A stretch of DNA of 64,000 nucleotides from a virus. The first letter of the stretch is position 1. The number at the start of each line of letters is the position of its first letter. The DNA lies in the IMG/VR virus record IMGVR_UViG_3300028392_000060, positions 9,471 to 73,470 of that record; one strand, 5' to 3'. Of this stretch, positions 555 through 14,456 are shown one piece after another. The notes beneath the pieces are model-generated. The model saw only the letters and a program-made list of their open reading frames with translations. It had not been told where the DNA came from and searched no databases. The position numbers were made by a program, and so were the translations under genes.

Positions 555-714
555 TAGCGTCTAGATAACCAATTGCCCATTGTTCATTTCCAAAATCCTT
601 ATGTTGCCATTCATACATAATGTTTTTCAGCTCCCCCTGCAGTACATCAATTAAAGGAACATTATGTTCTATGGCCTTTTTCATTTGTGGAGATAAATCA
701 TTGTAATTAAGCAT
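484..714 (-). CDS. hypothetical protein
   Basis: ORF track; overlaps neighbours in operon fashion. Confidence 0.65.
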   Translation of the reverse strand: MLNYNDLSPQMKKAIEHNVPLIDVLQGELKNIMYEWQHKDFGNEQWAIGYLDAIENIYNMCYDIIFYQSDLEKANG

Positions 715-1438
715 TTGTCATCTCCCTATGATCTTCGCACTTGTCTATATCTGCACCATAGAAGCAATTGCGGCATACTTCATTTTCACAATCTTCACAC
801 CACATATCAGAAGGGTCTCCAATATATTTGTAATCACATTCATTGCATTGCCAGTTCCAAGATGTATCTGATATTACTTCACCTCTAAGGATTTCCATTT
901 CCCCGCCCCAGCCTGTCTCCTCTTCATATGAAAGCGTAAAGAGTAGTTCAGGATACTGAGAAGATAGATTAGTTAATGCTTCATTAGGAACACCCCAAGC
1001 AGTATTAAAGTTATAATAAACTACTTTGTTATCGCCATTGTCAACAGGACCTTCCATACGTGTATCAGGATATTGTTCTTCACTAGACACGGCAACGTCC
1101 CACTTAACACCCCAGTTGCGGAGATTCCAGTTGTACCAATCATTGCCGACCTCTTGTTCGGCGTGGACTTCTTTCCACATATCTTCGCCTTTGGCCTCAA
1201 GGTTAACTTTTGCCTTTGCGTGATTGTGATACGCCTCTAAGTCTGTTGGTTTAATTATATTCCAGAATGCGAAAAGCGGGGCGGGATAAAGAATATCTTT
1301 TGCAACACTTGTCTTAGTATTAATATCCCAAGCGTGGGGATGAAATACTTTAAATGGTTGATTCATTTGATTTACTAATTTAGTTACAGATTCAGGATTA
1401 CCTTCTATAGTTAATCCATTAAATACCCAGTTTGGCAT
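707..1438 (-). CDS. DUF1281/YubB ferredoxin-like domain protein with C-terminal Cys cluster
   Basis: Motifs MPNW, WYNWNLRNWGVKWD, FNTAWGVP, LSSQYPEL.FTLSYEEE are typical of this phage family. Confidence 0.7.
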   Translation of the reverse strand: MPNWVFNGLTIEGNPESVTKLVNQMNQPFKVFHPHAWDINTKTSVAKDILYPAPLFAFWNIIKPTDLEAYHNHAKAKVNLEAKGEDMWKEVHAEQEVGNDWYNWNLRNWGVKWDVAVSSEEQYPDTRMEGPVDNGDNKVVYYNFNTAWGVPNEALTNLSSQYPELLFTLSYEEETGWGGEMEILRGEVISDTSWNWQCNECDYKYIGDPSDMWCEDCENEVCRNCFYGADIDKCEDHREMTNA

Positions 1439-1620
1439 TATTTATTCTCCTCATCAAAGGCTCCATAACTTGGAGTTATTCCGCTAAGCCACTCATAATA
1501 ACTTAATTTTCCCCCTAATTCCCAGCATTGTAAACAGAAAGTGCCAAATTGTTGTGCTACAACATAAGCAGGAATTGGAGAAATTGTTTTACAATTAGTA
1601 CAAGTTATTCTTTCAGTCAT
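1438..1620 (-). CDS. small Zn-finger-like hypothetical protein
   Basis: CxxC...CxxC; RBS (GAAAGGA) and PafBC-type promoter directly upstream. Confidence 0.65.
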   Translation of the reverse strand: MTERITCTNCKTISPIPAYVVAQQFGTFCLQCWELGGKLSYYEWLSGITPSYGAFDEENK

Positions 1621-1647
1621 TATTGTCCTTTCGTTGGGTAGGGTCTT

Positions 1648-1669
1648 ATTGTAGCATAGGGTACTGACA
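1648..1669 (-). promoter_or_regulatory. PafBC/RecA-NDp-type promoter
   Basis: Minus strand TGTCAG-taccctatgc-TACAAT (10-nt spacer). Confidence 0.8.
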
Positions 1670-1674
1670 TTTGG

Positions 1675-1983
1675 CTAGTCCCGCACCTTGTCAGTAGCCT
1701 CATCGTAAAGCAACCAGTCTATATCTATAGAATAGACAATCGTAATTGATTTGTCTAAAAGCTGGAGAACCACATGGTCCCCCTCTGTGTATCCAATTAG
1801 TTTAGCATCTTGAATTTGTTCACGACTAAAAGATCTATCTTCGTAAACGGCGGGAATGTGATTAAAGTAATAAGTATCACTATGAATACTATCCATTATA
1901 TCAAGCATTAGAATACTCCAATTCATTTTGTGATAAAGTAAATACAGTAAAATTAACACCATTGTTATAACAGAAGTTAACAC
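1675..1983 (-). CDS. hypothetical protein (start probably ~1908)
   Basis: ORF track. Confidence 0.5.
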   Translation of the reverse strand: MLTSVITMVLILLYLLYHKMNWSILMLDIMDSIHSDTYYFNHIPAVYEDRSFSREQIQDAKLIGYTEGDHVVLQLLDKSITIVYSIDIDWLLYDEATDKVRD

Positions 1984-2122
1984 AATTTATCAGAGATTCT
2001 GATTCATATAGTGGATATCCACCTGTATCGTAATCATTATCTAAATCAGGATATACTTCAAACATATTTATACCCCCTGGTGATACTGAATAATCTATTT
2101 CATATATTCTAAAGGTTTCCAT
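1901..2122 (-). CDS. hypothetical protein, probably leaderless mRNA
   Basis: ORF track; TAGACT-N18-TAAAAT promoter (2129-2158) places the start site at or next to the ATG. Confidence 0.65.
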   Translation of the reverse strand: METFRIYEIDYSVSPGGINMFEVYPDLDNDYDTGGYPLYESESLINCVNFCYNNGVNFTVFTLSQNELEYSNA

Positions 2123-2164
2123 AGGTAGATTTTAGCATATCGTAATCGTAAAAGTCTAATCGTA

Positions 2165-2230
2165 ATCTCATATTTTGAGATATATTTCAGTGATATATAT
2201 CACATATCGTAAAGTGTGATTTTAATCACA
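2165..2230. promoter_or_regulatory. operator cluster: ATCTCA-N5-TGAGAT palindrome plus two CRP-like boxes
   Basis: ATCTCATATTTTGAGAT 2165-2181; AGTGA-N6-TCACA 2189-2204; perfect TGTGA-N6-TCACA 2215-2230. Confidence 0.7.
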
Positions 2231-2404
2231 CCCCCGCGCCCAGCTGTCCCACTTTGTCAAGTGGGACACGCAAGGTTTTACATATAACTTACTATAAATT
2301 CCATAGTCATATGCAAATTACAATCACAATCATTTTTTGCAGAATCAAAGTGATCTTGATATTGCTCATAGATAAGTGTTACAAGTTCATCTATAGTGTA
2401 TGGT

Positions 2405-2770
2405 TTATGTGTTGTGGTAATTGTGAACCTCTTCCATATATGAAATAAAACTTTCAAAACTGTGCCAATGTCCATTATCATTTACCATTTGAGTAGTGAA
2501 ATCTATTTCTACTACTTCGTCCATATAAGGTGTGTCAGCATTTGCTACATAGATACCGAAGCCTGTTTCGCTATCCCGCCCATCTTTTGTTAGTTGGTCA
2601 ATTACAATGCGGAGAGCATACGGAACATCTCCCATATCAGTACGCTTTTTTGCGGCGGTAAGTGCTAACGCTAAATCCTCACGCCAAGTTGTTTCGCCCC
2701 AATGTGAATATAGCACAATGTTAGGCATATCTAACTCTGTTTTAAATACGAAATTAACTCTTGCTCCCAT
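2405..2770 (-). CDS. hypothetical phage protein (MGARVNFVF...LYSHWG)
   Basis: ORF track 2405..2860; start reassigned to 2770 because an AGGAG RBS lies just upstream. Confidence 0.7.
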   Translation of the reverse strand: MGARVNFVFKTELDMPNIVLYSHWGETTWREDLALALTAAKKRTDMGDVPYALRIVIDQLTKDGRDSETGFGIYVANADTPYMDEVVEIDFTTQMVNDNGHWHSFESFISYMEEVHNYHNT

Positions 2771-2901
2771 TAAAGTATTCCTCCTATCGCTATAAATACT
2801 CCAAGTAATACTGCTAAGATTAAAACTACTGCCGTTGAGTTCATTATCATATCCTATCAAATAAGTGGCGGGAAGTCAATTACCCTTCCCGCCCAAGTTA
2901 A

Positions 2902-3318
2902 TTAGAGATATTGAGCGATAGACTTCATAGTGGAAGCATTAACTGTTTCCTCATCTGTCATACGCAAGATGTTAAGAGCGTTTGTGATTTCCTCTTTGGA
3001 ATTTTTGTATTCATAATTTGCCATTTGGTTAAACTCACGGGTTGGCTCAACAGGGAAGTTAGAGCCTTTTGTGCTGACATCAAAATCAACATTTAGAGTT
3101 TCACTCCAAGAACGATACCCTGTGCGAAGGTTAGTTGCGGTTGCGATATTAGCGAGAGCGAAGTCTTTTAGACTATCTTGCCAAGCCTTGTATGCTTCTT
3201 GGAACTTTGCTTCGTTGGCTTCTTGACCAGCGTAGTCTATCTCAATTTGGGCTAACTTAGCCTCTAGTGCCTTGATTACCTTTGGTGTTGCCACCTTTAC
3301 TGTTATTGCTCTAGCCAT
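2902..3318 (-). CDS. hypothetical helical protein
   Basis: ORF track; RBS AAAGGA and PafBC-type promoter upstream. Confidence 0.75.
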   Translation of the reverse strand: MARAITVKVATPKVIKALEAKLAQIEIDYAGQEANEAKFQEAYKAWQDSLKDFALANIATATNLRTGYRSWSETLNVDFDVSTKGSNFPVEPTREFNQMANYEYKNSKEEITNALNILRMTDEETVNASTMKSIAQYL

Positions 3319-3351
3319 TTGGTTTCCTTTGTTAGTTGGGTTGGTAGGATT

Positions 3352-3373
3352 ATTATATCAGGGGGGTCTGACA
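3352..3373 (-). promoter_or_regulatory. PafBC/RecA-NDp-type promoter
   Basis: TGTCAG-acccccctga-TATAAT. Confidence 0.85.
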
Positions 3374-3448
3374 TAAACTTAAGTGCTAGTTCTTACTTAC
3401 GACATTGGGCTAGAACTCTAGCAAACTGCCCCTGTTTCGTTGTCCCCT

Positions 3449-3470
3449 ATTATATCATAGGGGTCTGACA
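3449..3470 (-). promoter_or_regulatory. PafBC/RecA-NDp-type promoter
   Basis: TGTCAG-acccctatga-TATAAT. Confidence 0.85.
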
Positions 3471-3698
3471 TTATGCTTCGTGCTTGGGCAAATCAACACG
3501 CACATTTTTCTGTATGTTAGAACTAATTAACTTACCTTGAAAAGCGACCATCATTTTTGCCAATTTCATTTCATCACCAGATGATAGTTCAATCTGGTTA
3601 TCATTTAAGACTACATATTCAACGCCATATTGAATAGCCTTGCCCAATCCATAGCCCATTTGGGCTTTGGACGGGACTTCTAAAGTAATAACTGCCAT
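3471..3698 (-). CDS. hypothetical protein
   Basis: ORF track; RBS GAGAGGA. Confidence 0.65.
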   Translation of the reverse strand: MAVITLEVPSKAQMGYGLGKAIQYGVEYVVLNDNQIELSSGDEMKLAKMMVAFQGKLISSNIQKNVRVDLPKHEA

Positions 3699-3699
3699 A

Positions 3700-4323
3700 T
3701 TAGGATTCCTCTCTTACATCATAAATAGAATAATCATTTACATCTACATCAGCACCATAAGTGGATACTGAAAGTTCATCATTTAACATAGTTTCTAAAT
3801 CATAATTATCGGTTAAAGATACACGCATAATTCCACTTACTTCTATTGTGGCAGAAAACTCTATTTCTTTACTTAGTTCAAGATTAAATAAATCTGCGAT
3901 AGTTGTTAAAGTATCTTGGTCATTACTGTCATCATAAGCGTCAATAATTATGTTATGAAGTGTAACTAACTTGTTGTTGAAATCAGCAACATCACTCTTA
4001 AGTTGACGGGCTTCACGAAGTTTCCACTCTAAATCATTAACTTTATCAGTTTGATAAGTTGTTTCGTTATTCTCAATTATCTTGTAGGTAACGAGTAGGT
4101 TTGGGTTATATTCTGTTGAAATATCCATTTGTTCCTCTTTCTTTGTAGTTGGGTCTATTGTAACATCTACCACCGACATCAGTATCATTTGTGTATCTGT
4201 CATACATTTTGGACACATATCACTTTGTGGAAGTCCATTAGATTTAATAGTCATTACAATATGGCTATCGCAATTTGGGCATACATAATCCCATTTAAAC
4301 CAGGTTTCATTTTTATTTGTCAT
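3700..4323 (-). CDS. hypothetical protein with N-terminal Zn ribbon (possible internal start at 4128)
   Basis: CPNC...CPKC; promoter TTGATT-N17-TAAAAT at 4331-4359. Confidence 0.65.
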   Translation of the reverse strand: MTNKNETWFKWDYVCPNCDSHIVMTIKSNGLPQSDMCPKCMTDTQMILMSVVDVTIDPTTKKEEQMDISTEYNPNLLVTYKIIENNETTYQTDKVNDLEWKLREARQLKSDVADFNNKLVTLHNIIIDAYDDSNDQDTLTTIADLFNLELSKEIEFSATIEVSGIMRVSLTDNYDLETMLNDELSVSTYGADVDVNDYSIYDVREES

Positions 4324-4330
4324 AGCGAGT

Positions 4331-4396
4331 ATTTTAGCAGGTTACTCACGGGTAATCAAACGACACGCCGTAAAACTCAGGGTGATTTTTATCACA
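4331..4396 (-). promoter_or_regulatory. sigma-A-type promoter with WhiA-type GACAC motif and CRP-like box
   Basis: CGGCGTGTCG-t-TTGATT-N17-TAAAAT; GGTGA-N6-TCACA at 4381-4396; TTACTCACGGGTAA in the spacer. Confidence 0.7.
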
Positions 4397-4403
4397 CTCG
4401 TAA

Positions 4404-4433
4404 CGACACGCCCGACCTCGGGGGGCGCGGCCC
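4404..4433. repeat. conserved GC-rich intergenic element, copy 1
   Basis: CGACACGCCCGACCTCGGGGG(G)CGCGGC, near-identical at 5769, 8592 and 9903. Confidence 0.9.
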
Positions 4434-4470
4434 ATGCATAATTATACATTGCAATGCATATTTATACATT
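4433..4470. promoter_or_regulatory. tandem ArgR (ARG box)-like operator
   Basis: CATGCATAATTATACATT-gc-AATGCATATTTATACATT: two 18-bp imperfect palindromes at a 20-bp period. Confidence 0.65.
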
Positions 4471-4479
4471 GAAGCTTTG

Positions 4480-4555
4480 CGATCCGTACGGGATTTGAAC
4501 CCGTGGTCTCTACAGTGACAGTGTAGTGAATTAAACCAAACTATTCTAACGGACC
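4480..4555 (-). tRNA. tRNA-Asp (GTC)
   Basis: Cloverleaf with acceptor GGTCCGT/ACGGATC, anticodon arm CTACA-CTGTCAC-TGTAG, T arm ACGGG-TTCAAAT-CCCGT and discriminator G; followed by CAA, not CCA. Confidence 0.95.
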
Positions 4556-4561
4556 TTGCGG

Positions 4562-4589
4562 TGAGCAGTTTTTACACTTGCTCAGGTGT
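4562..4589 (-). ncRNA. compact H-type pseudoknot motif, copy A
   Basis: ACAC-C-TGAGCA-A-GTGT-AAAAAC-TGCTCA; covaries with copies at 9977 and 10521. Confidence 0.7.
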
Positions 4590-4597
4590 TGCGAATT

Positions 4598-5626
4598 TTA
4601 TTTCGCTAGTGCTAAGACTTGCTTAACAATTTTATTTTTTTCAGCAGTTACAACAGGGTCAAAACCACTTGCGCCTGCCATTAGGCTATCGCCATCTTTT
4701 CGGGCTGTGCGATAATAATCTAGGCGTTCTGTGAGAGCATTTACAACACCCCACGCAGTACCCTTGATATTATTATTGGTAGGCGAATTGTGATAAAGTT
4801 CATCAAGCAATACAACCTTATTTTCCCATTTCTTGATTGAACCCTTTTTGTCCAATTCAGGCTTTGGGTACATCTTGTTAATGATTTCTGAAAACTTTTT
4901 ATCAGTAACAGAAATTGCGAATAGTTCTTGCGCTTGCTTTTCAAATTCATCAGCATATGCGAAAGTTAATCCGAGAGCCTCTCGTGCTTGAGCAATTTTA
5001 CCATCAACAGTTTGTGTATGACGGATTTTGAAACTCTGCTTTGCTTTTTTCATAGCAAAATTAAGAGTGTTTTGGCACATAACACGAACAGGGGTAATAG
5101 CAGATTGAACCGCTACTGAGCCATCGTGTGAAGTCCAAACAATTAGATAAAGTTTTGTTTCATCGTTCACACCTTTAGGGTCTAATACGATTGTGCGGGG
5201 AACGGACATTGTGCCAAACACAACATTGCCACCCTTGAGAGAGCCTGCGCTTTCCCAAAATACATCTTGATTTCCATCGTGTAAGTTATCAGCAAACGAA
5301 AATAATTCCTCGTTTTGAACTTCTTTATAGCGTGAACCTACAACGGAGAGAACATCAGTTTGTCCCGCAGTATAAGGGTTATCACGAATTACAAGTTGAT
5401 TATCCTTGAGAGAGTTCCAATTCTCAGGGAGATAATCAGCAACAGGAGCAAGGCGAACGTTCCAATTAGATAGTTTAGCACCATCTAACATTTGAGCAGT
5501 TGTTACTGCTTCATCTTGATTGAATACCTTATTGGCAAAAGAGTGCCAAGCGGGTACTGTGCGGAGATTTACGGCAAGAGAAACTTCTCCGCCTTCAACC
5601 TCTGATTTATGAGCCAAGTTGGTCAT
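4598..5626 (-). CDS. DUF932 family phage/plasmid protein (TIGR03299-like)
   Basis: Motifs PAWH, LSVVGSRY..VQNEELF.FAD, ESAGSLKGG, SHDGS, TPVRVMCQNTL, IRHT, GTAWG..NALTE..DY. Confidence 0.9.
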   Translation of the reverse strand: MTNLAHKSEVEGGEVSLAVNLRTVPAWHSFANKVFNQDEAVTTAQMLDGAKLSNWNVRLAPVADYLPENWNSLKDNQLVIRDNPYTAGQTDVLSVVGSRYKEVQNEELFSFADNLHDGNQDVFWESAGSLKGGNVVFGTMSVPRTIVLDPKGVNDETKLYLIVWTSHDGSVAVQSAITPVRVMCQNTLNFAMKKAKQSFKIRHTQTVDGKIAQAREALGLTFAYADEFEKQAQELFAISVTDKKFSEIINKMYPKPELDKKGSIKKWENKVVLLDELYHNSPTNNNIKGTAWGVVNALTERLDYYRTARKDGDSLMAGASGFDPVVTAEKNKIVKQVLALAK

Positions 5627-5655
5627 ATGATTTCCTTTCTTTGTTTGTTAAATTG

Positions 5656-5677
5656 AGTATAACATATGGCACCGACA
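5656..5677 (-). promoter_or_regulatory. PafBC/RecA-NDp-type promoter for the DUF932-tRNA unit
   Basis: TGTCGG-tgccatatgt-TATACT. Confidence 0.85.
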
Positions 5678-5726
5678 TTTGTCCACTTTAAATAATCATT
5701 TTAAGACACATTCAACCAATTTTGCG

Positions 5727-5797
5727 TGTGAGAAATATCACAGAGATTTTTTCGGCGTGTCGTAAATGCGACACGCCCGACCTCGGGGGCGCGGCCC
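5727..5797. repeat. CRP-like box, inverted GACAC pair and conserved GC-rich element copy 2
   Basis: TGTGAGAAATATCACA 5727-5742; CGTGTCG-taaatg-CGACACG; element at 5769-5797. Confidence 0.85.
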
Positions 5798-6087
5798 AAA
5801 AATTTAATTTTGTCAAGTCAACACGCAGCTATTTTTTAAATAAAAAAAATATTTTTAATATAACAATAATGGCCACCGTGTAAAATAATTGTGAAAACAC
5901 GTTGACCATTAATTGCATTTTATCCCCTCGTTTAAATATATTTTATAAGATCTTTTGTTTTTCTACAATTTTTCTAGCCTTTGCAGATAACGGTTTACCT
6001 GGGCAGTTCATATGAAAATAAGTTATTAGCATATCTTCTTCATTTGTTGTTGTGGCCCCGCATTTATGGCAGGACCACGATTCTTTT

Positions 6088-6411
6088 TTATTCTTCATCA
6101 GTGTACACGCATTCTGCACAGTCGCATTCCCATGAATGCGGTAGCCATGCGTCTAAGTGATGCGCTTCTGCAATTGCGGATGCGGGAGCACTTTCTTCTC
6201 CACGCCATGACACGCCTTCGGGAAGTTTAATCAAGCGAGAATAATCTTCTTCATGATATGCATCAATTGCATCTAGGCAAGGTTGCACCATTGAAGAGGG
6301 GACGGGTGGGTAGTGATTACCCTTCAAGTGAATTTTTAATTGTGTGCGAATATCTATAGCCATATCCGCTAGATCATTTGCAAAAACACTTCCCATATTA
6401 GTTATCTCCAT
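6088..6411 (-). CDS. hypothetical phage protein (HLxGNHYPPVP...AHHLDAW)
   Basis: ORF track; operon-coupled. Confidence 0.75.
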   Translation of the reverse strand: MEITNMGSVFANDLADMAIDIRTQLKIHLKGNHYPPVPSSMVQPCLDAIDAYHEEDYSRLIKLPEGVSWRGEESAPASAIAEAHHLDAWLPHSWECDCAECVYTDEE

Positions 6412-6682
6412 TTTCTATTGAATCAAACATATTTTGAATTTCTAGGGCTTCATCCGCCATTTTATCAAAGTCCTCACCCATTAGCAAGTGCGACACTCTA
6501 GTAGCGACTACACTAGCAAGTAAAGTAGAATAAGCAAACATCATTTCAGAAATACGATCTAATTTTTCTGAATTACCTTCAGCATAGTCCCAAGCAATTT
6601 CACGAGCAGCATTCATCACTTCAATATCAATTACTGAATCAGCAGTCGCTTCTCTAATTTCAAAGAAAGTAGAAATACTCAT
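6398..6682 (-). CDS. hypothetical protein
   Basis: ORF track; coupled to neighbours. Confidence 0.7.
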   Translation of the reverse strand: MSISTFFEIREATADSVIDIEVMNAAREIAWDYAEGNSEKLDRISEMMFAYSTLLASVVATRVSHLLMGEDFDKMADEALEIQNMFDSIENGDN

Positions 6683-6888
6683 TATTCCACCACCTTTAAT
6701 AATGCGTAAGAATTATTTTCGTTTAATTCATCTAAGATATCTGTTAGTTTAGGAACGATTAACGCCTTAAGCATATCCTCAAGCATAGCCACTTGTTGTT
6801 CATATGGGAGAGATAGTAGACGGCGGGCAGTAGGATTATTTTCATCCAATTCTGTTTCAAACTTTAGCGTGTGAGGGATTTTTACCAT
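6682..6888 (-). CDS. hypothetical protein
   Basis: ORF track; RBS AAAGGA and promoter upstream. Confidence 0.7.
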   Translation of the reverse strand: MVKIPHTLKFETELDENNPTARRLLSLPYEQQVAMLEDMLKALIVPKLTDILDELNENNSYALLKVVE

Positions 6889-6922
6889 TTATTTATTGTC
6901 CTTTTCTTTGTTGGGAGTAGTT

Positions 6923-6944
6923 AGTATATCACGAGCCACCGACA
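6923..6944 (-). promoter_or_regulatory. PafBC/RecA-NDp-type promoter
   Basis: TGTCGG-tggctcgtga-TATACT. Confidence 0.85.
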
Positions 6945-7008
6945 TTAGTTCGGTGGAGAAAGTGTTATCTATGAAATTATTCCATAGTGTATCAAGTTGA
7001 TTATTCAT

Positions 7009-7212
7009 TTATTCCCCTTCGTCATATTCTAGGGACATAGGGAAGGCATCTAGCCCCATAAATCCCATATCTTCTTGATCATAGCACTCAGGGCAGACAT
7101 AGTCATCGCCATATATTTCATATTCATCTACGGAGTAAAAAGTTTCTTTAGCCCCGCATATTTCATAGTATAGACACGCTACTACAAAAATTTCATCTTG
7201 TTGATTTATCAT
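7009..7212 (-). CDS. small acidic Cys-rich protein
   Basis: ORF track 7009..7308; start reassigned to MINQQDE (RBS GAAAGGT) because the upstream part spans the promoter. Confidence 0.65.
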   Translation of the reverse strand: MINQQDEIFVVACLYYEICGAKETFYSVDEYEIYGDDYVCPECYDQEDMGFMGLDAFPMSLEYDEGE

Positions 7213-7243
7213 AAGTTTACCTTTCTTGTTGTTGATATTGGCA

Positions 7244-7265
7244 AGTATAACATAGGGCACCGACA
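7244..7265 (-). promoter_or_regulatory. PafBC/RecA-NDp-type promoter
   Basis: TGTCGG-tgccctatgt-TATACT; CRP-like GGTGA-N6-TCACA at 7294-7309 upstream. Confidence 0.85.
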
Positions 7266-7344
7266 CGATCAAACAACACGCCGCAAAACTCAGGGTGATT
7301 AAAATCACACTCGTAACACGGCGTGTCGGCTTGACAGCCGCGGC

Positions 7345-7377
7345 AAAAAATTTGCAGCTTTTGCAAACTACAAATTT
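7345..7377 (-). terminator. probable intrinsic terminator (similar one at ~8618-8652)
   Basis: Minus strand AAATTTGTAG-loop-CTGCAAATTT ending in a T run. Confidence 0.5.
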
Positions 7378-7502
7378 ATTTTTTTATTTATTCAAATTTA
7401 TTTTTATATTTATTTTTTCTTGAATAAATTTTTTTATTTTTAATTGGTGTTGCCGCATTACTGCGACGCAATTCTTGAATGCGTTTTACTTTTTCCATAA
7501 TT

Positions 7503-7706
7503 TTATTTACCCCCAATTTTACCACCACGATACAAAATTTTTGTATGTAATTTCCCGCTTGGCTCTAATAAATTAACAGTTGCGTATTCATTAGCAAATC
7601 CCCAATCAACAAAACTGCGATAAGAATTTACTGCGTCTAACGCATTATCTAACACCATTGACCAATGCGGTGCTTTGCCATCATAGGCACAAGTTATTTT
7701 GTACAT
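7503..7706 (-). CDS. hypothetical protein
   Basis: ORF track; RBS GGAG. Confidence 0.7.
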   Translation of the reverse strand: MYKITCAYDGKAPHWSMVLDNALDAVNSYRSFVDWGFANEYATVNLLEPSGKLHTKILYRGGKIGGK

Positions 7707-7798
7707 TAGTTATTTCTCCAAACATTTATTGCATAGGGCATAATTATTTGAGAAATAAACACGATAACATCTAACGCATTTGCTTAGTTTAGTTTTCA

Positions 7799-7987
7799 TT
7801 AGTTATTCTCCCAATTCTTGAATAGTTGGTGAAAATCTGCAATTTTTTCCGCAGAAATTTGAGTTGGATTACACTCACAATAATCAAAATCAAAATCTCC
7901 GTCTGGTGATGACCAACCTGTGAAACCTTGACCATAGCACTCAGGGCAAGTTAAAATTTCGGTGATTACTTCTTTTACTTTAGACAT
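7799..7987 (-). CDS. small Zn-ribbon protein (CPEC.G.G...YCECNP)
   Basis: ORF track 7799..8011; start at MSKVKE with RBS GAAAGGA. Confidence 0.7.
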   Translation of the reverse strand: MSKVKEVITEILTCPECYGQGFTGWSSPDGDFDFDYCECNPTQISAEKIADFHQLFKNWENN

Positions 7988-8029
7988 TAGTTGTCCTTTC
8001 TTGTTTGACATTTACACTTTGTTAATTGT

Positions 8030-8051
8030 ATTCTATCACCCACCACCGACA
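8030..8051 (-). promoter_or_regulatory. PafBC/RecA-NDp-type promoter
   Basis: TGTCGG-tggtgggtga-TAGAAT. Confidence 0.8.
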
Positions 8052-8090
8052 AGGTGGCGAGTGTTGAACAGTTATCGCATAAGTAAATCA

Positions 8091-8312
8091 TTACTCATCT
8101 ACTTTGATATAAACAGTTGCGAAAAAATCAGGCTTAGGGTAACCTTCGCCTGTGTAAGTTGGGCGAACTTTACAAGCGAACGCATAAACGCCTTCGCTTA
8201 AACCGCAAATATCTTTTCGCAATTTTGCGTATTGGATAATTCCGTCTTGACCTGTTCGGGCATAAGAACGGCTACGATAGTATTTTCCCTCTAGGGCTTC
8301 TGAGATTAGCAT
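8091..8312 (-). CDS. hypothetical protein
   Basis: ORF track; RBS GAAGGT. Confidence 0.7.
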   Translation of the reverse strand: MLISEALEGKYYRSRSYARTGQDGIIQYAKLRKDICGLSEGVYAFACKVRPTYTGEGYPKPDFFATVYIKVDE

Positions 8313-8419
8313 TATTTGCTACCTTCTTTCTTTGTTGAGTTAATTATAACATTTACCACCGACACGGCAGACTGACGGCGGGTTTCAAGTACGTGTGCCT
8401 TGAATTCATCTAGGTTCAT
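8312..8419 (-). CDS. small hypothetical protein MNLDEFKAHV... (35 aa)
   Basis: 3' part of track ORF 8312..8596; RBS GAAGGT; contains an internal promoter. Confidence 0.55.
   Translation of the reverse strand: MNLDEFKAHVLETRRQSAVSVVNVIINSTKKEGSK
8343..8364 (-). promoter_or_regulatory. PafBC/RecA-NDp-type promoter (intragenic)
   Basis: TGTCGG-tggtaaatgt-TATAAT. Confidence 0.8.
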
Positions 8420-8450
8420 TATTTGACCTTCTTTCTTTCTTGTTATGGCA

Positions 8451-8472
8451 AGTATACCAAAACCCACTGACA
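8451..8472 (-). promoter_or_regulatory. PafBC/RecA-NDp-type promoter
   Basis: TGTCAG-tgggttttgg-TATACT. Confidence 0.85.
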
Positions 8473-8481
8473 TTATTCTAC

Positions 8482-8617
8482 TTACTAGCCAGTAATTCCA
8501 TATTTTGAGACGCTCAAGCGGTGTGATAAATATCACACGACACGCCCGAAAGATGAATTTTAGATGAATTTTAATCCACACGTAATCCACAGACACGCCC
8601 GACCTCGGGGGCGCGGC
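8482..8617. promoter_or_regulatory. dense operator array ending in GC-rich element copy 3
   Basis: TTACT-N4-AGTAA 8482-8495; TTCCATATTTTGAGAC 8496-8511; TGTGA-N6-TCACA 8522-8537; CGACACGCC; (AGATGAATTTT)x2 8551-8572; TAATCCACA x2; element 8592-8617. Confidence 0.75.
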
Positions 8618-8682
8618 AAAAAATTTGCAGCTTTTTAATTCTGCAAATCTTTTTTATTTTTATTTATTTTTATTTATTTTTT

Positions 8683-8796
8683 TTATTTAAAATTTTTAAA
8701 AATTTCTTCAACAATTTTTAACTGTTCATCGTTAAGATGTTCAATTTGAATTGCATCTGCAAATCCAAAAATATCTTTTTGATTTTCATTAGTCAT
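8683..8796 (-). CDS. small hypothetical protein MTNENQKDIFGFADAI... (37 aa)
   Basis: Read by hand; overlaps the stop of the upstream gene. Confidence 0.5.
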   Translation of the reverse strand: MTNENQKDIFGFADAIQIEHLNDEQLKIVEEIFKNFK

Positions 8797-8983
8797 TGAA
8801 ACATGCTTCCCAAAAACGATCCGCATCAAAATTTGGATTATCGTTTTCAAAAATTGTTATGAAACGATTTACCAAACCATTTTCAAATTCATTTGTAAAA
8901 GATGGGCGGGTTTCCAAATTATTTTCTTTTAAATAATCATTAAGGATTTTAGCCGTAGCGATATAAGTTTTTCTAGTCATCAT
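8789..8983 (-). CDS. small protein, MMTRK family paralogue 1
   Basis: ORF track; paralogous to 10012..10191. Confidence 0.75.
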   Translation of the reverse strand: MMTRKTYIATAKILNDYLKENNLETRPSFTNEFENGLVNRFITIFENDNPNFDADRFWEACFND

Positions 8984-9076
8984 TTATTTATTCTCTTCAA
9001 TCTCATCTAGTAGTTCCCAAAGAATTGGCTCTAACGCTTTTGCGCTTTCATCTAATTTTTCTTGTAGTGTTTTCAT
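8984..9076 (-). CDS. small hypothetical protein MKTLQEKLDESAKALEPILWELLDEIEENK
   Basis: Read by hand; exactly fills the gap between adjacent genes. Confidence 0.6.
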   Translation of the reverse strand: MKTLQEKLDESAKALEPILWELLDEIEENK

Positions 9077-9283
9077 TTATTTATAGTATTCCATTTCTGT
9101 TAGTAAGTGAGCATAACCATCTTTATTAGACTTTAGCGATAATTCGCAAGGCTCGCATTTCCATTCATATTTTAATGTTCTACCTGTTCCCAATGTTGCA
9201 ACAGCCCAATGGGTCATTTTACGAGAACACACAGGGCAGTAGCAAGAAATTTCTTGCCCTAGCCCACCAATTTTAATAGTCAT
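9077..9283 (-). CDS. small Zn-ribbon protein
   Basis: CPVC...CEPC. Confidence 0.7.
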   Translation of the reverse strand: MTIKIGGLGQEISCYCPVCSRKMTHWAVATLGTGRTLKYEWKCEPCELSLKSNKDGYAHLLTEMEYYK

Positions 9284-9477
9284 TATTTAACCACGCTTTC
9301 TTTAAATTCTTTTTGATTACAAGTTAAGGCAAGGATTTCACCCTTAGCATTTACGATACGAGCATTTACTATATCGTGTTCATCACTAACATTAGTGATT
9401 TCATTTATTAGGTAATTCTCATTTTTCCAAATAAAGAGACACCCTACGAATAATTTATTTATAAGTGTTAAAGTCAT
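9283..9477 (-). CDS. hypothetical protein
   Basis: ORF track 9283..9495; coupled start at MTLTL. Confidence 0.6.
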   Translation of the reverse strand: MTLTLINKLFVGCLFIWKNENYLINEITNVSDEHDIVNARIVNAKGEILALTCNQKEFKESVVK

Positions 9478-9671
9478 TAGATACACACCACGCATTCACA
9501 CTTAGGGGCATTAACAGATAATAAAATTTTTAACAACGCTTTACGCTGTCCAAAATTTAAGCCATAAGTGGATTTACACCCACCATTATTAAAATCGTGT
9601 ATGATACGATTTTCTAATTCCGCACTAATATTTAGTGCCTTACCTATATTTATTTTATTTAGTGTAGTCAT
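9477..9671 (-). CDS. hypothetical protein
   Basis: ORF track; RBS GAAAGGTGG; WhiA-type promoter upstream. Confidence 0.7.
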   Translation of the reverse strand: MTTLNKINIGKALNISAELENRIIHDFNNGGCKSTYGLNFGQRKALLKILLSVNAPKCECVVCI

Positions 9672-9706
9672 CTTAGACCACCTTTCTTTATTGTTTAACT
9701 ATCGTT

Positions 9707-9747
9707 AGTTTAGCAGACTTTCTGCCGAAAATCAAGGCGACACGCCG
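9707..9747 (-). promoter_or_regulatory. sigma-A-type promoter with WhiA-type motif
   Basis: CGGCGTGTCGCC-TTGATT-N17-TAAACT. Confidence 0.7.
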
Positions 9748-9860
9748 TAGATTTCTAACTTTTTTTTCTATATTTAATTTTCTATAATGGAATTGTAACA
9801 TAAAAAATCGCTACTGTCTAGTATACTCGTGAGTAGTCTCAATATATGGAGCGTGGGCTT

Positions 9861-9929
9861 TGTGATAAAAATCACAAAGATTTTTTTAATCGTACGTAAA
9901 TGCGACACGCCCGACCTCGGGGGCGCGGC
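9861..9929. repeat. CRP/Rex-like box and GC-rich element copy 4
   Basis: TGTGATAAAAATCACA 9861-9876; element 9903-9929. Confidence 0.85.
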
Positions 9930-9935
9930 GAAAAA

Positions 9936-9949
9936 CGAACAGATGTTCG
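9936..9949. promoter_or_regulatory. LexA (SOS) box, Gram-positive/actinobacterial type
   Basis: CGAACAGATGTTCG matches CGAAC-N4-GTTCG. Confidence 0.8.
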
Positions 9950-9976
9950 CATTAAAAAAATAGCTGTAAAAAAAAT

Positions 9977-10005
9977 TAAGCAGTTTTAAAACTTACTTAG
10001 GTTTT
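9977..10005 (-). ncRNA. compact pseudoknot motif, copy C
   Basis: AAAAC-C-TAAGTA-A-GTTTT-AAAAC-TGCTTA. Confidence 0.65.
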
Positions 10006-10011
10006 TATTTT

Positions 10012-10191
10012 TTAAACGTTTAAATTTTTAAAACACTCTTCCCAAAATCTATCGCTATCAAATCTTTCGTTATCAGCGAAAAACATTTCGGAAAAATCAT
10101 TTACTAAATCTTCAAACACTTCTAATTTCATTTCGCCACCATAAGAATTTAAAATCTCTGCGGTTGCTACGTAGTCTTTTCTTGTCATCAT
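10012..10191 (-). CDS. small protein, MMTRK family paralogue 2 (59 aa)
   Basis: Read by hand: MMTRKDYVATAEILNSY...FFADNERFDSDRFWEECFKNLNV; RBS AAAGGA. Confidence 0.8.
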   Translation of the reverse strand: MMTRKDYVATAEILNSYGGEMKLEVFEDLVNDFSEMFFADNERFDSDRFWEECFKNLNV

Positions 10192-10317
10192 TTTTGTTCT
10201 TTTCCTTTTCTTTAGTTAATAGATTAAGTGGGGCATAGGTTGATTACGGAGACTTACTCGCACTCTTGCCTTAAGACTCAGCGAAGCCCGACCCACTTAA
10301 TTATATTTATTATAGCA

Positions 10318-10488
10318 TTACTTAGATGTTTTAACCATTGCTAAACGCTTTGAGCCATTTGCTAAAGTTAAACCAACACGAGTTACTTTGTTAGAAATTG
10401 GAGCGAAAGAATTTATTCGTCCAGTAATTCCAGTTGTTGATGTTGTGAATAAATCACCGATTTGGTAAGTGTATCCTTGTATTGTCAT
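10318..10488 (-). CDS. small beta-rich protein, TYQIGDLFTT family paralogue 1 (56 aa)
   Basis: Read by hand: MTIQGYTYQIGDLFTTSTTGITGRI...; RBS AAAGGA. Confidence 0.8.
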   Translation of the reverse strand: MTIQGYTYQIGDLFTTSTTGITGRINSFAPISNKVTRVGLTLANGSKRLAMVKTSK

Positions 10489-10520
10489 TTATTTTATATC
10501 CTTTTCTTTTGTTGGGTTGT

Positions 10521-10549
10521 TGAGCAGTTTTATATCTTGCTCAGGATAT
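10521..10549 (-). ncRNA. compact pseudoknot motif, copy B
   Basis: ATATC-C-TGAGCA-A-GATAT-AAAAC-TGCTCA. Confidence 0.7.
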
Positions 10550-10568
10550 TTAGGGTATTTCCCTAAAC

Positions 10569-10733
10569 TTATGCGAGTGAAACTGTTGTGTAACGCTCTG
10601 TTCCATCAACATCAAGCAGAACACGAGTTAGTGTTTTGCTAATTGGTTCAATAGCCTTGATAACGCCTGTTACCTTGCTTTTTTGTGTAGTGAATAAATC
10701 ACCGATTTGGTAAGTCTTGTTATTTATAGTCAT
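10569..10733 (-). CDS. small beta-rich protein, TYQIGDLFTT family paralogue 2 (54 aa)
   Basis: Read by hand: MTINNKTYQIGDLFTTQKSKVTGVI...; RBS AAAGGA. Confidence 0.8.
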   Translation of the reverse strand: MTINNKTYQIGDLFTTQKSKVTGVIKAIEPISKTLTRVLLDVDGTERYTTVSLA

Positions 10734-10765
10734 TTTTTTCCTTTTCTTTTGTTGTTGTTAGTGAT

Positions 10766-10787
10766 AGTCTACCATAGACTACCGACA
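10766..10787 (-). promoter_or_regulatory. PafBC/RecA-NDp-type promoter
   Basis: TGTCGG-tagtctatgg-TAGACT. Confidence 0.8.
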
Positions 10788-10795
10788 TTTGCTTT

Positions 10796-10981
10796 CTATC
10801 TTTGATTTAATAAAGATTTACAACCTGCGAAGGGGCATCTTATATGTTGCGCCCTATGGATTTTATAAGTATATTTTCCGACATTAGAAAGGCGGGGGCT
10901 ATGGTGAGTGCTACCATAAGCGGGGGCGGGAATTAGTAGTGCTATTAGAATTACTATAACTATTCTTTTAATCATTTCCAC
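10796..10981 (-). CDS. small secreted/membrane hypothetical protein
   Basis: Signal-peptide-like N terminus. Confidence 0.5.
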   Translation of the reverse strand: MEMIKRIVIVILIALLIPAPAYGSTHHSPRLSNVGKYTYKIHRAQHIRCPFAGCKSLLNQR

Positions 10982-11075
10982 CCCTTAACTTCTTTAGCCA
11001 TATAGTAAAACATCATACCAAAGAAAGGCAAAGATATCAACATTATAGCCCGTAGGGCATAGGTGAGATATATCA

Positions 11076-11258
11076 CTAGAGTACCTCATCTATATCAAAA
11101 TTATCTACGGCTAGAAAGACATCTGCCATTTCATCAGCGTCAGATTTAGCCTCTGCTAATTCATCTAACATAGTATCAAAGGTATCGGCAAGTGTTTCCC
11201 ACTTGTCTGTCTTTCTATCAAACGAATATGAGTAAGTCATTATTTGACCCCCGCACAA
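11076..11258 (-). CDS. small acidic hypothetical protein
   Basis: ORF track; likely start MTYSY at 11240. Confidence 0.6.
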   Translation of the reverse strand: MCGGQIMTYSYSFDRKTDKWETLADTFDTMLDELAEAKSDADEMADVFLAVDNFDIDEVL

Positions 11259-11383
11259 TTCATATTGCCACTTCCGAGAGTAGCATAAGCAGAAAGTGGT
11301 CTACCATTTTGATAGATGATTTTTTCACTACAACGAGAGCAGGTTGTAACCTGTTCGGTAGGTTGAGTAGGATTGTGTAACAT
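11240..11383 (-). CDS. small Cys-containing hypothetical protein
   Basis: 3' part of track ORF 11240..11473; RBS GAGGT before MLHNPT. Confidence 0.55.
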   Translation of the reverse strand: MLHNPTQPTEQVTTCSRCSEKIIYQNGRPLSAYATLGSGNMNCAGVK

Positions 11384-11444
11384 ATTAGTTACCTCTATTC
11401 TTTTAATTAGATTGAGAACCTTTCTCAATTTCTTTAATACTGTA

Positions 11445-11484
11445 ATTATAGCACACAAAATCGGAAAAGTCAAGCGACACGCCG
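11445..11484 (-). promoter_or_regulatory. strong sigma-A-type promoter with WhiA-type motif
   Basis: CGGCGTGTCGC-TTGACT-N17-TATAAT. Confidence 0.8.
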
Positions 11485-11648
11485 TTAATTACACGCTTGT
11501 AATTAGTGATATACACCACAAAACGCCCTATTTCTAGACATACTGGCGAGTAATGTCTAATATTCGGGCGCACTATTATTTTTTTATTTTTTTATTTAAA
11601 AAGTGTATCATGCATTTTAAAAATCCATTCACATTTTGACCAAATGTG

Positions 11649-11662
11649 GTTTCACGTGAAAC
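11649..11662. promoter_or_regulatory. parS site (ParB binding)
   Basis: Perfect 14-bp palindrome GTTTCACGTGAAAC in intergenic DNA. Confidence 0.85.
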
Positions 11663-11722
11663 AATTTTGAGGGGAGTGGCATAATGTTTTCTATTAACTA
11701 TCTTAGAAAAATATCGTGGCAT

Positions 11723-12583
11723 TTAAATCTTCAAATCCAAATCTGTAATGTAATAGGTTTCATAGAAGTTTTGAGAAATTCTACGATTTAATATATAGTA
11801 GAAAATCTGGCGGGATATAGAAAGCTCATCAAAATCAAAACTATCCAGATACTCTATAGCTATTTTAGCATCATTACTATCTATAGCATGTTTTCCATTA
11901 AGAGGACTGGCACTTATTTTATCAAAACACTTATTTACTATGCTAAGATCACGCAATATTTTGTCGGGAGACCAAGAATCTTCCCCCCGATCCCTTAAAG
12001 CTGGATAAATATGACATGGAGAAATAGCAAAAGTACCTCTTGTCCAATGTACATTAGGATATTTTGTTCTAATTACAGATTCTTCTTCTTCAAAATATTC
12101 TATAAGGCGTAAAACCCTAGAATTTTCATTTTTTATAGCATTTTTCCATCTTGTATCAGCAATATGTTGTTTTCCATTACGATTTCGTGATTGTGAAAAG
12201 ACAGGAAGGCGAGAAATTAAATCATTTGCTTTAATTTCTTTAGAATTATAAGACTTTCTCTCTATTTGATAATTAACTTCTTCTATAGAGGTTCTTTTTG
12301 GCCTAATTTTGCTTAATTCAGACAGTTCTGCATCTGTGCATGATAATAAATACTCATTTTGAGTATAATGAGCTTCTAAACCATATTGTAAGTGTTTAAA
12401 ACCAGATGCGGGGATTATAAAAAAATATTTATCAGTATAAATATGATAAGAATCTTCACTAGATACATGTAAATATTTAATATTGTGACATAAATCACTA
12501 ATTGGTTTCATTTTTCCTAATCCATAGTTGATATCCTGAATGAATAATTTCAATTTTATCTTTATAGCATGCAAGAAAAGCAT
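11723..12583 (-). CDS. hypothetical protein (start probably ~12511, MKPISDL)
   Basis: ORF track. Confidence 0.65.
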   Translation of the reverse strand: MLFLHAIKIKLKLFIQDINYGLGKMKPISDLCHNIKYLHVSSEDSYHIYTDKYFFIIPASGFKHLQYGLEAHYTQNEYLLSCTDAELSELSKIRPKRTSIEEVNYQIERKSYNSKEIKANDLISRLPVFSQSRNRNGKQHIADTRWKNAIKNENSRVLRLIEYFEEEESVIRTKYPNVHWTRGTFAISPCHIYPALRDRGEDSWSPDKILRDLSIVNKCFDKISASPLNGKHAIDSNDAKIAIEYLDSFDFDELSISRQIFYYILNRRISQNFYETYYITDLDLKI

Positions 12584-13070
12584 CTATAGCAATTTTTGGT
12601 TTTTGATACTCTGGGTATGGTGGAGGCCATCCATAATCATCAAATGCAATAATTCCTCCATGCTTTAAATTTTCAAAAGAATTTATTGCATCTTTTAAAA
12701 CTTGTGGAGCTAAATGGCTTCCATCTACATATATAAAATCATACATTGGGCGTGGGTATTTAAAAAACTCATCGCTAGTCATTTTATACTTGTTGATTGT
12801 ATTATTAGCAATATAAAGATCTAATTTTTCATTATAGATTTGCTCTACTTCATTAAAATTAAATCCCTCATGCTCCATAGATCCACTCCATGTATCTACA
12901 TCATCAAGGCGGGAATCTGGATGAGTCAATACATTCTCACATAACCATAAAGAACAATCTCCAGTATATGCACCTACCTGTAAAACATGTATAGGAGTTC
13001 CAGATAATGGAACTAATTTTTCTTTAAATGTAGACATCATTCCAGCAAACCAATTAGGATATTGATTCAT
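12498..13070 (-). CDS. class I SAM-dependent methyltransferase (Methyltransf_24-like)
   Basis: VLQVGAYTGD, DVDTW, YDFIYVDGSH, LKHGGIIAFDDY. Confidence 0.85.
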   Translation of the reverse strand: MNQYPNWFAGMMSTFKEKLVPLSGTPIHVLQVGAYTGDCSLWLCENVLTHPDSRLDDVDTWSGSMEHEGFNFNEVEQIYNEKLDLYIANNTINKYKMTSDEFFKYPRPMYDFIYVDGSHLAPQVLKDAINSFENLKHGGIIAFDDYGWPPPYPEYQKPKIAIDAFLACYKDKIEIIHSGYQLWIRKNETN

Positions 13071-13569: not shown

Positions 13570-13585
13570 TTCTACTTTTTCGGCC

Positions 13586-14452: not shown

Positions 14453-14456
14453 TTTT

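Follow-up and report, generated by a model that had tools for sequence, protein, structure and literature searches.

The window analysed here is a 64,000-nucleotide stretch of viral DNA, bases 9471-73470 of IMG/VR record IMGVR_UViG_3300028392_000060 (73,470 bp; CheckV completeness estimate 66%), and the elements in question are the spacers between the small genes at positions 2165-11662, in which an original prediction had seen a panel of host transcription-factor operators. GC content of the window is about 35%. Its right two thirds carry virion genes of siphovirus type (portal, protease, capsid and a 2551-aa tape measure, from PHROG matches), and positions 1-16400 hold small genes, mostly ORFans, all on the minus strand and with strong Shine-Dalgarno sites, together with one tRNA-Asp. 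This leftward block probably corresponds to the early genes, a timing suggested by gene size, orientation and promoter density. No DNA-binding domain was detected by Pfam in 30 open reading frames (ORFs) of the block, and several of its small ORFan proteins carry CxxC pairs. The nearest matches of the capsid protein are in Streptomyces phages of roughly 130 kb (~54% identity) and a WhiB gene (PF02467, E=1e-10) lies in the record just left of the window; with the cassette words described below, these make an actinobacterial host likely. The phage is probably an uncultured freshwater (lake) phage of Actinobacteria with a genome of roughly 110 kb. Megablast of the DNA against 50,697 phage records gave no match, and the tRNA was the only match of an Rfam scan.

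Read on the transcribed minus strand, the spacers share a common order of elements: a U-run hairpin, a GC-rich element, accessory words, a palindrome of the CRP type, a proximal word, a promoter, and then either a Shine-Dalgarno leader or a leaderless start. The GC-rich element (26-27 nt, four copies) is an imperfect inverted repeat with right arm GGGCGTGTCG and ends in the word GGCGTGTCG, hereafter the box. The accessory words (TTACGA repeats, a DnaA-box-like pair, an 11-bp repeat, an ARG-like tandem) are optional. The features are the following.

1648-1669, minus strand: PafBC-type promoter TGTCAG-N10-TACAAT.
2123-2277, minus strand: cassette before gene 1901-2122, with hairpin GTCCCACTTGACAAAGTGGGAC, CRP-type boxes 2215-2230 and 2190-2203, TCTCA-N5-TGAGA at 2166-2180, TTACGA repeats and, as read from the sequence, a TAGACT-N18-TAAAAT promoter whose end lies 6 nt before the ATG (leaderless).
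3352-3470, minus strand: two PafBC-type promoters in one spacer (3449-3470 and 3352-3373).
4157-4178, minus strand: PafBC-type promoter within the long reading frame 3700-4323 and upstream of an internal start at 4128.
4324-4478, minus strand: cassette A, between tRNA-Asp and gene 3700-4323, with ARG-like tandem cores 4435-4448 and 4455-4468, GC-rich element 4405-4431, CRP-type core 4382-4395, and box plus TTGATT-N17-TAAAAT promoter 4331-4369 (near-leaderless).
4479-4555, minus strand: tRNA-Asp (GTC), found by Rfam.
5627-5942, minus strand: cassette B, before the 342-aa gene, with GC-rich element 5770-5795, box palindrome GGCGTGTCG-N6-CGACACGCC 5754-5777, CRP-type box 5727-5742 and PafBC-type promoter 5656-5677; orthologous spacers are kept in relatives.
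6923-6944, 8030-8051, 8343-8364 and 10766-10787, minus strand: PafBC-type promoters.
7213-7387, minus strand: cassette C, with terminator hairpin and U-run at about 7345-7377, inverted box 7320-7328, CRP-type core 7295-7308, and variant box GGCGTGTTG plus TTGATC plus PafBC-type promoter 7244-7282.
8423-8682, minus strand: cassette D, with terminator hairpin at about 8618-8653, GC-rich element 8592-8617, two DnaA-box-like TAATCCACA 8572-8591, 11-bp direct repeat 8551-8572, box 8538-8546, CRP-type box 8522-8537, TACT palindrome 8483-8494 and PafBC-type promoter 8451-8472.
9672-10011, minus strand: cassette E, with LexA-like hairpin 9936-9949 followed by U5, GC-rich element 9904-9929, CRP-type box 9861-9876, two TACT palindromes 9812-9835, TAGACA-N17-TACAAT promoter 9792-9820, and box plus TTGATT-N17-TAAACT promoter 9707-9746.
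10976-11076, minus strand: CRP-type core 11063-11076 and TTGATA-N17-TATGAT promoter 11012-11040.
11384-11722, minus strand: upstream edge of the block, with parS 14-mer 11649-11662, GC-stem hairpin with TACT palindrome 11541-11552 followed by U4, and box plus TTGACT-N17-TATAAT promoter 11445-11483.

Each spacer holds at least one predicted promoter, which does not fit a panel of regulator sites devoid of promoters. The segment 8482-8617 of cassette D, singled out in the original prediction, is tiled as described, its elements covering about 102 of 136 nt, and a 23-nt block within it (8497-8519) is kept in distant relatives.

Two types of core promoter were recognised. The first, in four copies, reads GGCGTGT(C/T)G, 1-3 nt, TTGAyn, N17, TAnnnT (4331-4369, 7244-7282, 9707-9746, 11445-11483). 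The second, TGTCRG-N10-TAnnnT, has 11 matches in the 73.5-kb record; they all fall within 1648-10787 and on the minus strand, and the plus strand of the whole record has none. For 10 of the 11, a Shine-Dalgarno site and a start codon follow about 25-35 nt downstream. This second type matches the PafBC consensus tGTCgg(N10)tA(N3)T, including the -26 element that spans -23 to -28, as given in the available part of the published description (PMC8635444). According to the accessible text of two reports, PafBC-dependent (RecA-NDp) promoters of Mycobacterium and other Actinobacteria are read by 'sigma adaptation' (PMC8635444, PMC11804915). As far as these excerpts go, the phage promoters share with them the bipartite word tGTCgg-N10-tAnnnT, an upstream part at -28 to -23, a canonical -10 and, in many instances, the lack of a recognisable -35, whereas they differ in lying in a phage, 11 of them in 9 kb on one strand, in driving small ORFan genes rather than repair genes, and in that many copies add a box at -46 and a CRP-type box upstream, and some a TTGAnn at -35. 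The -35 hexamer is poor in most PafBC-type copies, and TTGAnn at 17-nt spacing is found in some (7244-7282) and in many relatives. An initial reading of the TGTCRG element as a MotA-box-like -30 element was replaced after the match to the PafBC consensus. At 2122 and 4323 the start codon lies 6-7 nt after the -10 TAAAAT (promoter ends 2120-2136 and 4321-4336), predicting leaderless or near-leaderless mRNAs, a common trait in Actinobacteria.

Motif counts in 2165-11662 were compared with those in 500 dinucleotide shuffles of the same segment. The box was found nine times in both orientations (CGACACGCC at 4361, 4404, 5769, 8538, 9738, 9903 and 11475, and inverted at 5754 and 7320) against 0.02 in shuffles, TGTGA-N6-TCACA four times exactly (2215, 5727, 8522, 9861) against 0.01, the GTGA-N6-TCAC core eight times against 0.07 and TACT-N4-AGTA four times against 0.18, and none of these counts was equalled in any of the shuffles. 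The PafBC-type promoter pattern occurred 10 times (0.04 in shuffles). Other words were rarer: CGAAC-N4-GTTCG was found once, at 9936, TCTCA-N5-TGAGA once, at 2166, TGCATAnnnATACA twice, at 4435 and 4455, the direct repeat of 11 bp at 8551-8572, and the parS 14-mer GTTTCACGTGAAAC once, as an exact copy at 11649-11662 that was seen in 0 of 500 shuffles. Single-copy palindromes (1 against 0.01 each) have weak weight, having been picked after the sequence was read, and TTACGA was not significantly enriched (4 against 2.3). Every motif named in the original prediction was present at its place, and for the multi-copy words the density was far higher than in the composition-matched shuffles. Perfect inverted repeats (arms 5, gap 3-8) numbered 83 in the 2628 nt of spacers against 23.0 ± 5.9 in shuffles, a 3.6-fold excess, with no clear enrichment in 5397 nt of coding DNA (54 against 43.7). 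U-run hairpins fold on the minus strand, for instance at 7345-7377 and 8618-8653; a simple terminator scan gave 9 sites against 8.6 in shuffles but requires three G-C pairs and so misses the AT-rich hairpins, which were assessed by separate folding. Across the 73.5-kb record, CGACACGCC was restricted to window positions 4361-11483 and GTGA-N6-TCAC to -480 to 12498, and no enriched cassette words were found in the remaining 60 kb.

Relatives were recovered as 80 viral loci carrying the 342-aa gene 4598-5626 (51-93% protein identity, genomes of about 105-120 kb, 1.35 Mb), with the same patterns read backwards as control and without dereplication of the counts. On the transcribed strand there were 983 PafBC-type promoters, as against 6 on the opposite strand (control 10 and 4). 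The CRP-type 16-mer was present 366 times (control 1) and in 80 of 80 loci, and the box 344 times forward and 128 times reverse (control 0 and 3) in 79 loci. The DnaA box is the 9-mer TTATCCACA; exact copies were found 187 and 80 times in the two orientations (control 17 and 3), in 68 loci. Counts for the remaining palindromes were 66 against 1 for TCTCA-N5-TGAGA, 132 against 56 for TACT-N4-AGTA, 22 against 0 for TGCAT-N4-ATGCA (18 loci), 7 against 1 for CGAAC-N4-GTTCG (6 loci, the full 16-mer in 5) and 8 against 0 for parS (8 loci). Conservation in related phages, which the original prediction had left as a check, is therefore borne out for the main words, present in 68-80 of the 80 loci. In four complete relatives, PafBC-type and CRP-type sites cluster in one 7-10-kb block, which contains all of the exact CRP boxes. 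Even the most distant clade retains, in the spacer preceding the 342-aa gene and in this order, a hairpin, an inverted DnaA-box pair, a CRP box, CGGACA words and a PafBC-type promoter.

The words also keep fixed distances from the promoters. In 57 unique contexts the box starts 18 nt before TGTCRG does, and in 9 this distance is 17 nt, which places the box at about -46 to -38. The family contains 693 unique CRP-like sites (at most one mismatch), of which 232 have no PafBC-type promoter within 160 nt; among the 461 that do, 352 are centred within 1 bp of -54.5, -64.5, -74.5, -84.5 or -94.5, a 10-bp spacing that puts them on one helical face of the promoter. In the window, where the centres were derived by hand from the coordinates and +1 was taken as 7 nt after the -10, the eight CRP-type centres are at -64.5 (three times), -74.5, -83.5, -85.5 (twice) and -100.5, seven of the eight being in phase. 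The proximal slot, -57 to -38, receives alternative words, each at its own place: -46 for the box in forward orientation and -54 for the inverted one, -50 for the TACT palindrome, -57 for the TCTCA palindrome and -56 for CGGACA. The CRP/GlxR consensus is the palindrome TGTGA-N6-TCACA, and in E. coli class I CRP sites are centred at -61.5 and -71.5. The phage sites thus share with class I promoters of E. coli and with actinobacterial Crp/GlxR sites the exact palindrome and an upstream position at 10-bp steps, and differ in that their centres at -54.5, -64.5, -74.5 and -84.5 are about 3 bp off those of E. coli and that their partner promoter is often of the PafBC type. The CRP/GlxR likeness claimed at the outset holds, with four exact and eight core sites in the stretch, presence in all related loci and helical phasing.

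Other regulator labels proposed for these spacers fared less evenly. The ARG-like pair (4435-4448 and 4455-4468) has minus-strand cores TGTAT-N4-ATGCA at a 20-nt period, each with one mismatch to TGCAT-N4-ATGCA. ARG operators consist, in the part of the report available, of two tandem boxes, 18 nt at 2 bp apart or 20 nt adjacent (PMC3293853). From the accessible text on Streptomyces ARG operators (PMC3293853, PMC5839063), the phage site at 4435-4468 shares the two adjacent boxes, the 20-nt period and cores of the form TG(C/T)AT-N4-ATGCA, and the family form TGCATAAATATGCA agrees with the cores of the argH and argG boxes of S. coelicolor, which likewise stand as adjacent tandems; the phage site differs in its position, some 110-145 nt ahead of the next start rather than overlapping a promoter, and in having exact cores in 18 of 80 relatives. 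The pair stands between the end of tRNA-Asp and the GC-rich element and folds with its flanks into a hairpin (-16.8 kcal/mol) where other cassettes carry the terminator. The ArgR resemblance may thus be kept for its tandem geometry, but the sporadic occurrence, the double role as a hairpin and the position away from the promoter tell against it.

Actinobacterial LexA binds the SOS box TCGAAC-N4-GTTCGA. The palindrome at 9936-9949 is real, but has G and T as flanks where the consensus has T and A, folds into a hairpin (6-bp stem, 4-nt loop) with U5 after it, lies about 115 nt upstream of the next -35 and is found in 6 of 80 relatives. The consensus parS palindrome is GTTTCACGTGAAAC, and for ParB the exact 14-mer at 11649-11662 stands, but the site is sporadic: it occurs in three different places in the relatives and was absent, at up to one mismatch, from all 4 complete relatives, and no ParB_N domain was found in a six-frame search of the record and 4 complete relatives. 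As had been noted for ArgR and LexA, the ARG-like and LexA-like sites overlap no promoter; they and parS are at least 100 nt from the next one. The WhiA label is unsupported: GACAC, the core of WhiA sites, is a 5-mer too short for its specificity to be judged, and it is part of the longer conserved 9-11-nt box (ac)GGCGTGTCG. PHO boxes are 11-nt direct repeats with a GTTCACC-like core; the 11-bp repeat at 8551-8572 reads AAAATTCATCT twice on the minus strand, the strict PHO pattern has one match in 1.35 Mb of relatives, and a looser likeness was seen by eye in a few orthologous spacers, which leaves to the PhoP/RegX3 label a likeness of shape only. The same applies to the IclR and TetR labels, though both palindromes, TCTCA and TACT, are conserved words in their own right. 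PafBC and DnaA, absent from the original prediction, are among the strongest likenesses in the family; in the window, DnaA-box-like words are limited to the two 8-of-9 copies TAATCCACA at 8572-8591.

We consider it probable, though by no means settled, that the spacers are terminator-plus-promoter cis-regulatory cassettes that place early promoters under host-factor control. In each of them the hairpin would close the previous transcription unit, and host RNA polymerase with sigma-A would transcribe the next one. The core promoter takes one of two forms, a -35/-10 pair for sigma-A or the PafBC type that lacks a -35 (TGTCRG-N10-TAnnnT), and at the second of these PafBC, the DNA-damage activator of the host, would assist. 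From palindromes centred some 64.5, 74.5 or 84.5 bp before the start, in a class-I-like position, a host protein of the CRP/GlxR type would act; the box might be read by a factor of the host or by a small protein of the phage. Early expression would in this way be tied to host single-stranded DNA (ssDNA) or damage signals and to cyclic AMP signals. The motifs, their excess over shuffles, their conservation and their fixed geometry are direct observations, as is the lack of recognisable CRP, WYL or ParB domains in the phages. From these we infer the identity of the binders, the sign of regulation and the early timing. The proposal that the modules read host physiology finds partial agreement here: the CRP, PafBC and family-wide DnaA likenesses are exact and conserved, and the CRP sites phased, but the other labels are sporadic or unsupported. 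A more ambitious form, in which the early programme is computed from the state of the host through a PafBC sigma adaptor, phased CRP, optional DnaA, ArgR, LexA and ParB inputs and a GGCGTGTCG reader, with at least four host proteins per 150-340-bp cassette and with amplified copies that may perturb regulons, seems to us rather unlikely.

Several points weigh against the reading of the spacers as host-read cassettes. Binding, transcription starts and expression are all predicted, and the presence of pafBC and crp in the host is an assumption. Three metatranscriptome runs contain 17-32% of the sequence words sampled from the stretch, which says nothing about expression. The centres of the CRP-type boxes miss the class I positions of E. 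coli by about 3 bp, and an off-phase class of 27 CRP-like sites lies at -69.5. PafBC-type promoters with TTGAnn at -35 (e.g. 7244-7282) may work without PafBC, and the most abundant word, GGCGTGTCG, matches no regulator that could be compared. The family counts are not independent, the loci being related by descent, and the small ORFan proteins with CxxC pairs could be unrecognised phage regulators.

This last point leads to a reading that we hold to be less probable, yet the strongest of the rivals: unrecognised phage-encoded regulators would read most of the boxes, including the CRP-like and -26 elements, their likeness to host sites being convergence or mimicry, and the spacers would exert ordinary temporal control. 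Both box and GC-rich repeat are lineage-specific (within one phage the repeat keeps the same left arm, between phages it changes), and the 30 early ORFs without assigned function, several with CxxC pairs, would offer candidates. The bias in box orientation (344 forward against 128 reverse in the family, 7 forward and 2 inverted in the stretch) recalls the stoperators of Cluster A mycobacteriophages which, according to the available portions of two reports (PMC9283540, PMC6550527), are likewise short asymmetric words repeated in an actinophage genome and oriented with respect to transcription. In the same sources, stoperators are 13-14 bp long, genome-wide and bound by an identified immunity repressor (PMC9283540, PMC6550527), whereas the box is limited to the early block, where it takes fixed promoter positions or forms a palindrome after terminators, and no immunity-repressor-like gene was identified for it by Pfam among the 30 early ORFs. 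Against phage regulators, the CRP-type, PafBC-type and DnaA words are exact consensus sequences kept in relatives whose protein identity is as low as 51-68%. No HTH_Crp_2 domain turned up in six-frame searches of the record and 5 complete relatives, and no WYL domain in those of the record and 4 complete relatives (the relatives searched for these domains and for ParB_N being 93-100% complete); readers of the CRP, PafBC or ParB type, if they act on these sites, would therefore be host-encoded. Moreover, promoters without a -35 need an adaptor, and PafBC is the known adaptor for exactly the TGTCRG-N10-TAnnnT motif in the published text at hand (PMC8635444).

The cassettes might also persist mainly as recombination substrates, in the manner of the PeSL elements (promoter-early stem-loops) of T4-type phages, with small-gene swapping as their main role and regulation as a secondary one, which we regard as improbable. 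The early block is a gene-scale mosaic, in which adjoining 100-nt bins are common to anywhere from 0 to 79 of the 80 relatives and the breaks fall near gene or spacer borders, and the same cassette words flank different genes in different loci. The terminator-plus-promoter make-up also fits the description of PeSLs in the accessible parts of two reports, as units of terminator stem-loop and early promoter between small variable genes in a plastic mosaic region (PMC2839356, PMC4122927). By comparison with those excerpts, the phage cassettes are much longer (150-340 nt), carry extra ordered protein-site words and use another promoter type, so that the analogy is one of architecture, with no sequence relation. 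Recombination alone leaves the 10-bp phasing of the CRP-type sites and the fixed 17-18-nt box-to-promoter spacing unexplained; the two roles are not exclusive.

Even less credit is given to a decoy array, an idea put forward at the start. In this reading the sites would titrate host repressors such as LexA, ArgR, CRP, DnaA and ParB during amplification, or host proteins would coat the first-injected DNA. The distance of the ARG-like, LexA-like and parS sites from promoters and the failure to find a phage ParB, CRP or WYL homologue in the searches above are in its favour. The sites are few, however, with 2-6 exact CRP boxes per complete genome and one LexA-like site, one ARG-like pair and one parS in the window, and the LexA-like site and parS are missing from most relatives. 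The abundant words stand at fixed promoter distances and are helically phased, neither of which a decoy needs, and for this reason titration of host repressors yields to cis-regulation. As to coating, in a relative with direct terminal repeats the block lies at 30-39 kb of a 112-kb genome and not at its end, which is hard to reconcile with first-injected DNA. Finally, chance clustering of short palindromes in AT-rich non-coding DNA, for which it may be said that the single-copy TCTCA-N5-TGAGA and CGAAC-N4-GTTCG cannot be judged alone and that about 23 perfect 5+5 inverted repeats are expected in the spacers, has a negligible probability, being refuted for the multi-copy words, which exceed all 500 shuffles, and opposed by the 83 inverted repeats observed and by the recurrence of the words in the 80 loci, the backwards-read controls being close to zero.

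A GTDB-wide scan for the host, using the composite GGCGTGTCG-N8-9-TGTCRG-N10-TAnnnT, returned 105 stretches. About half came from GC-rich chromosomes of Actinomycetota, in some of which the -10 is followed by an SOS-like box, and about 10 were AT-rich phage-like contigs binned with unrelated metagenome-assembled genomes, giving no host clue. The box as a host element is not supported, the matches being of the same order as a rough chance estimate. Among the AT-rich contigs, L119 (two matches; a 106.5-kb contig binned as Burkholderiales), L093, L098, L129, L138, L141, L146 and L176 carry the composite promoter of the family and are probably phage contigs mis-binned by coverage. Among the GC-rich Actinomycetota chromosomes, L086, L092, L107, L111, L130, L148, L172 and L182 have PafBC-type promoters with GGCGTGTCG 17-18 nt upstream, often with an SOS-box-like GAAC-N4-GTTC directly after the -10; their count is near chance and no claim is made. 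A low-GC Firmicutes host with a T4 MotA-like -30 box, suggested by the 35% GC and the strong Shine-Dalgarno sites, was dropped on the basis of WhiB and the PafBC consensus, and a crAss-like or N4-like phage with virion RNA polymerase promoters was dropped on account of the siphovirus-type tape measure, portal and capsid among the PHROG matches.

Some further features of the spacers and their surroundings were recorded. A hairpin word, CTGAGCAA...AAAACTGCTCA, with a 6-bp stem, follows gene ends at 4556-4597, 9972-10000 and 10489-10568 and is kept in relatives. Periodic A/T tracts (TTTATTTTTA-like) lie beside terminator hairpins at 7375-7440, 8650-8690 and 11575-11600 and may be intrinsically bent DNA or the tails of bidirectional terminators; one of them overlaps a doubtful Lys-rich 46-aa ORF (7388-7528). 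The GC-rich element had been considered as a lambda-nut-like antitermination hairpin, which was dropped in view of its place after terminators and before promoters, and a likeness of the GAGCGTCTCA.../CTCCATATATTGAGA blocks to the NrdR box and the HspR HAIR element was abandoned as the spacing does not fit. Two pairs of paralogous small genes, 10318-10488 with 10569-10733 and 8789-8983 with 10012-10191 (shared motifs TYQIGDLFTT and MMTRK.Y.ATA), have their own cassette ahead of each copy, which fits duplication or shuffling via repeated spacers. Elsewhere in the early block, gene 12498-13070 encodes a methyltransferase domain (Methyltransf_24, E=2e-12), and the 243-aa product of 707-1438 has a DUF1281_C ferredoxin-like domain. 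The left arm (record 1-8685, plus strand) encodes WhiB, GroES-like, thioredoxin-like, proteasome-subunit-like and SSB proteins, all but WhiB being read from translations. Where the rightward and leftward gene blocks converge, a 680-bp non-coding region (record 8686-9368, window -784 to -102) contains four GACATTACGA-like words, two exact CRP-type boxes and AT-rich tracts, and in four relatives (L009, L017, L027, L031) the orthologous region has a perfect parS beside a GACATTACGA-like word. From its sequence, this region is a candidate replication or partition region.

PafBC has been linked to phage resistance in the available text of one report (PMC12848934), and the accessible parts of the literature gave no description of PafBC-type promoters or of such cassettes in phages. 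In the phages examined here, what appears new is a cassette that joins a -35-less PafBC-type core, a helically phased CRP-type site and exchangeable proximal words, and that is kept in 80 uncultured relatives. That phages borrow single host regulators is known, as is the activation of PafBC by ssDNA. If the predicted binding is true, PafBC 'sigma adaptation' would be a phage route into the host transcription programme, and the activating ssDNA may arise from the infection itself. The cassettes would then provide a readable promoter grammar for abundant, hard-to-culture freshwater Actinobacteria, as well as compact, testable parts for actinobacterial synthetic biology.

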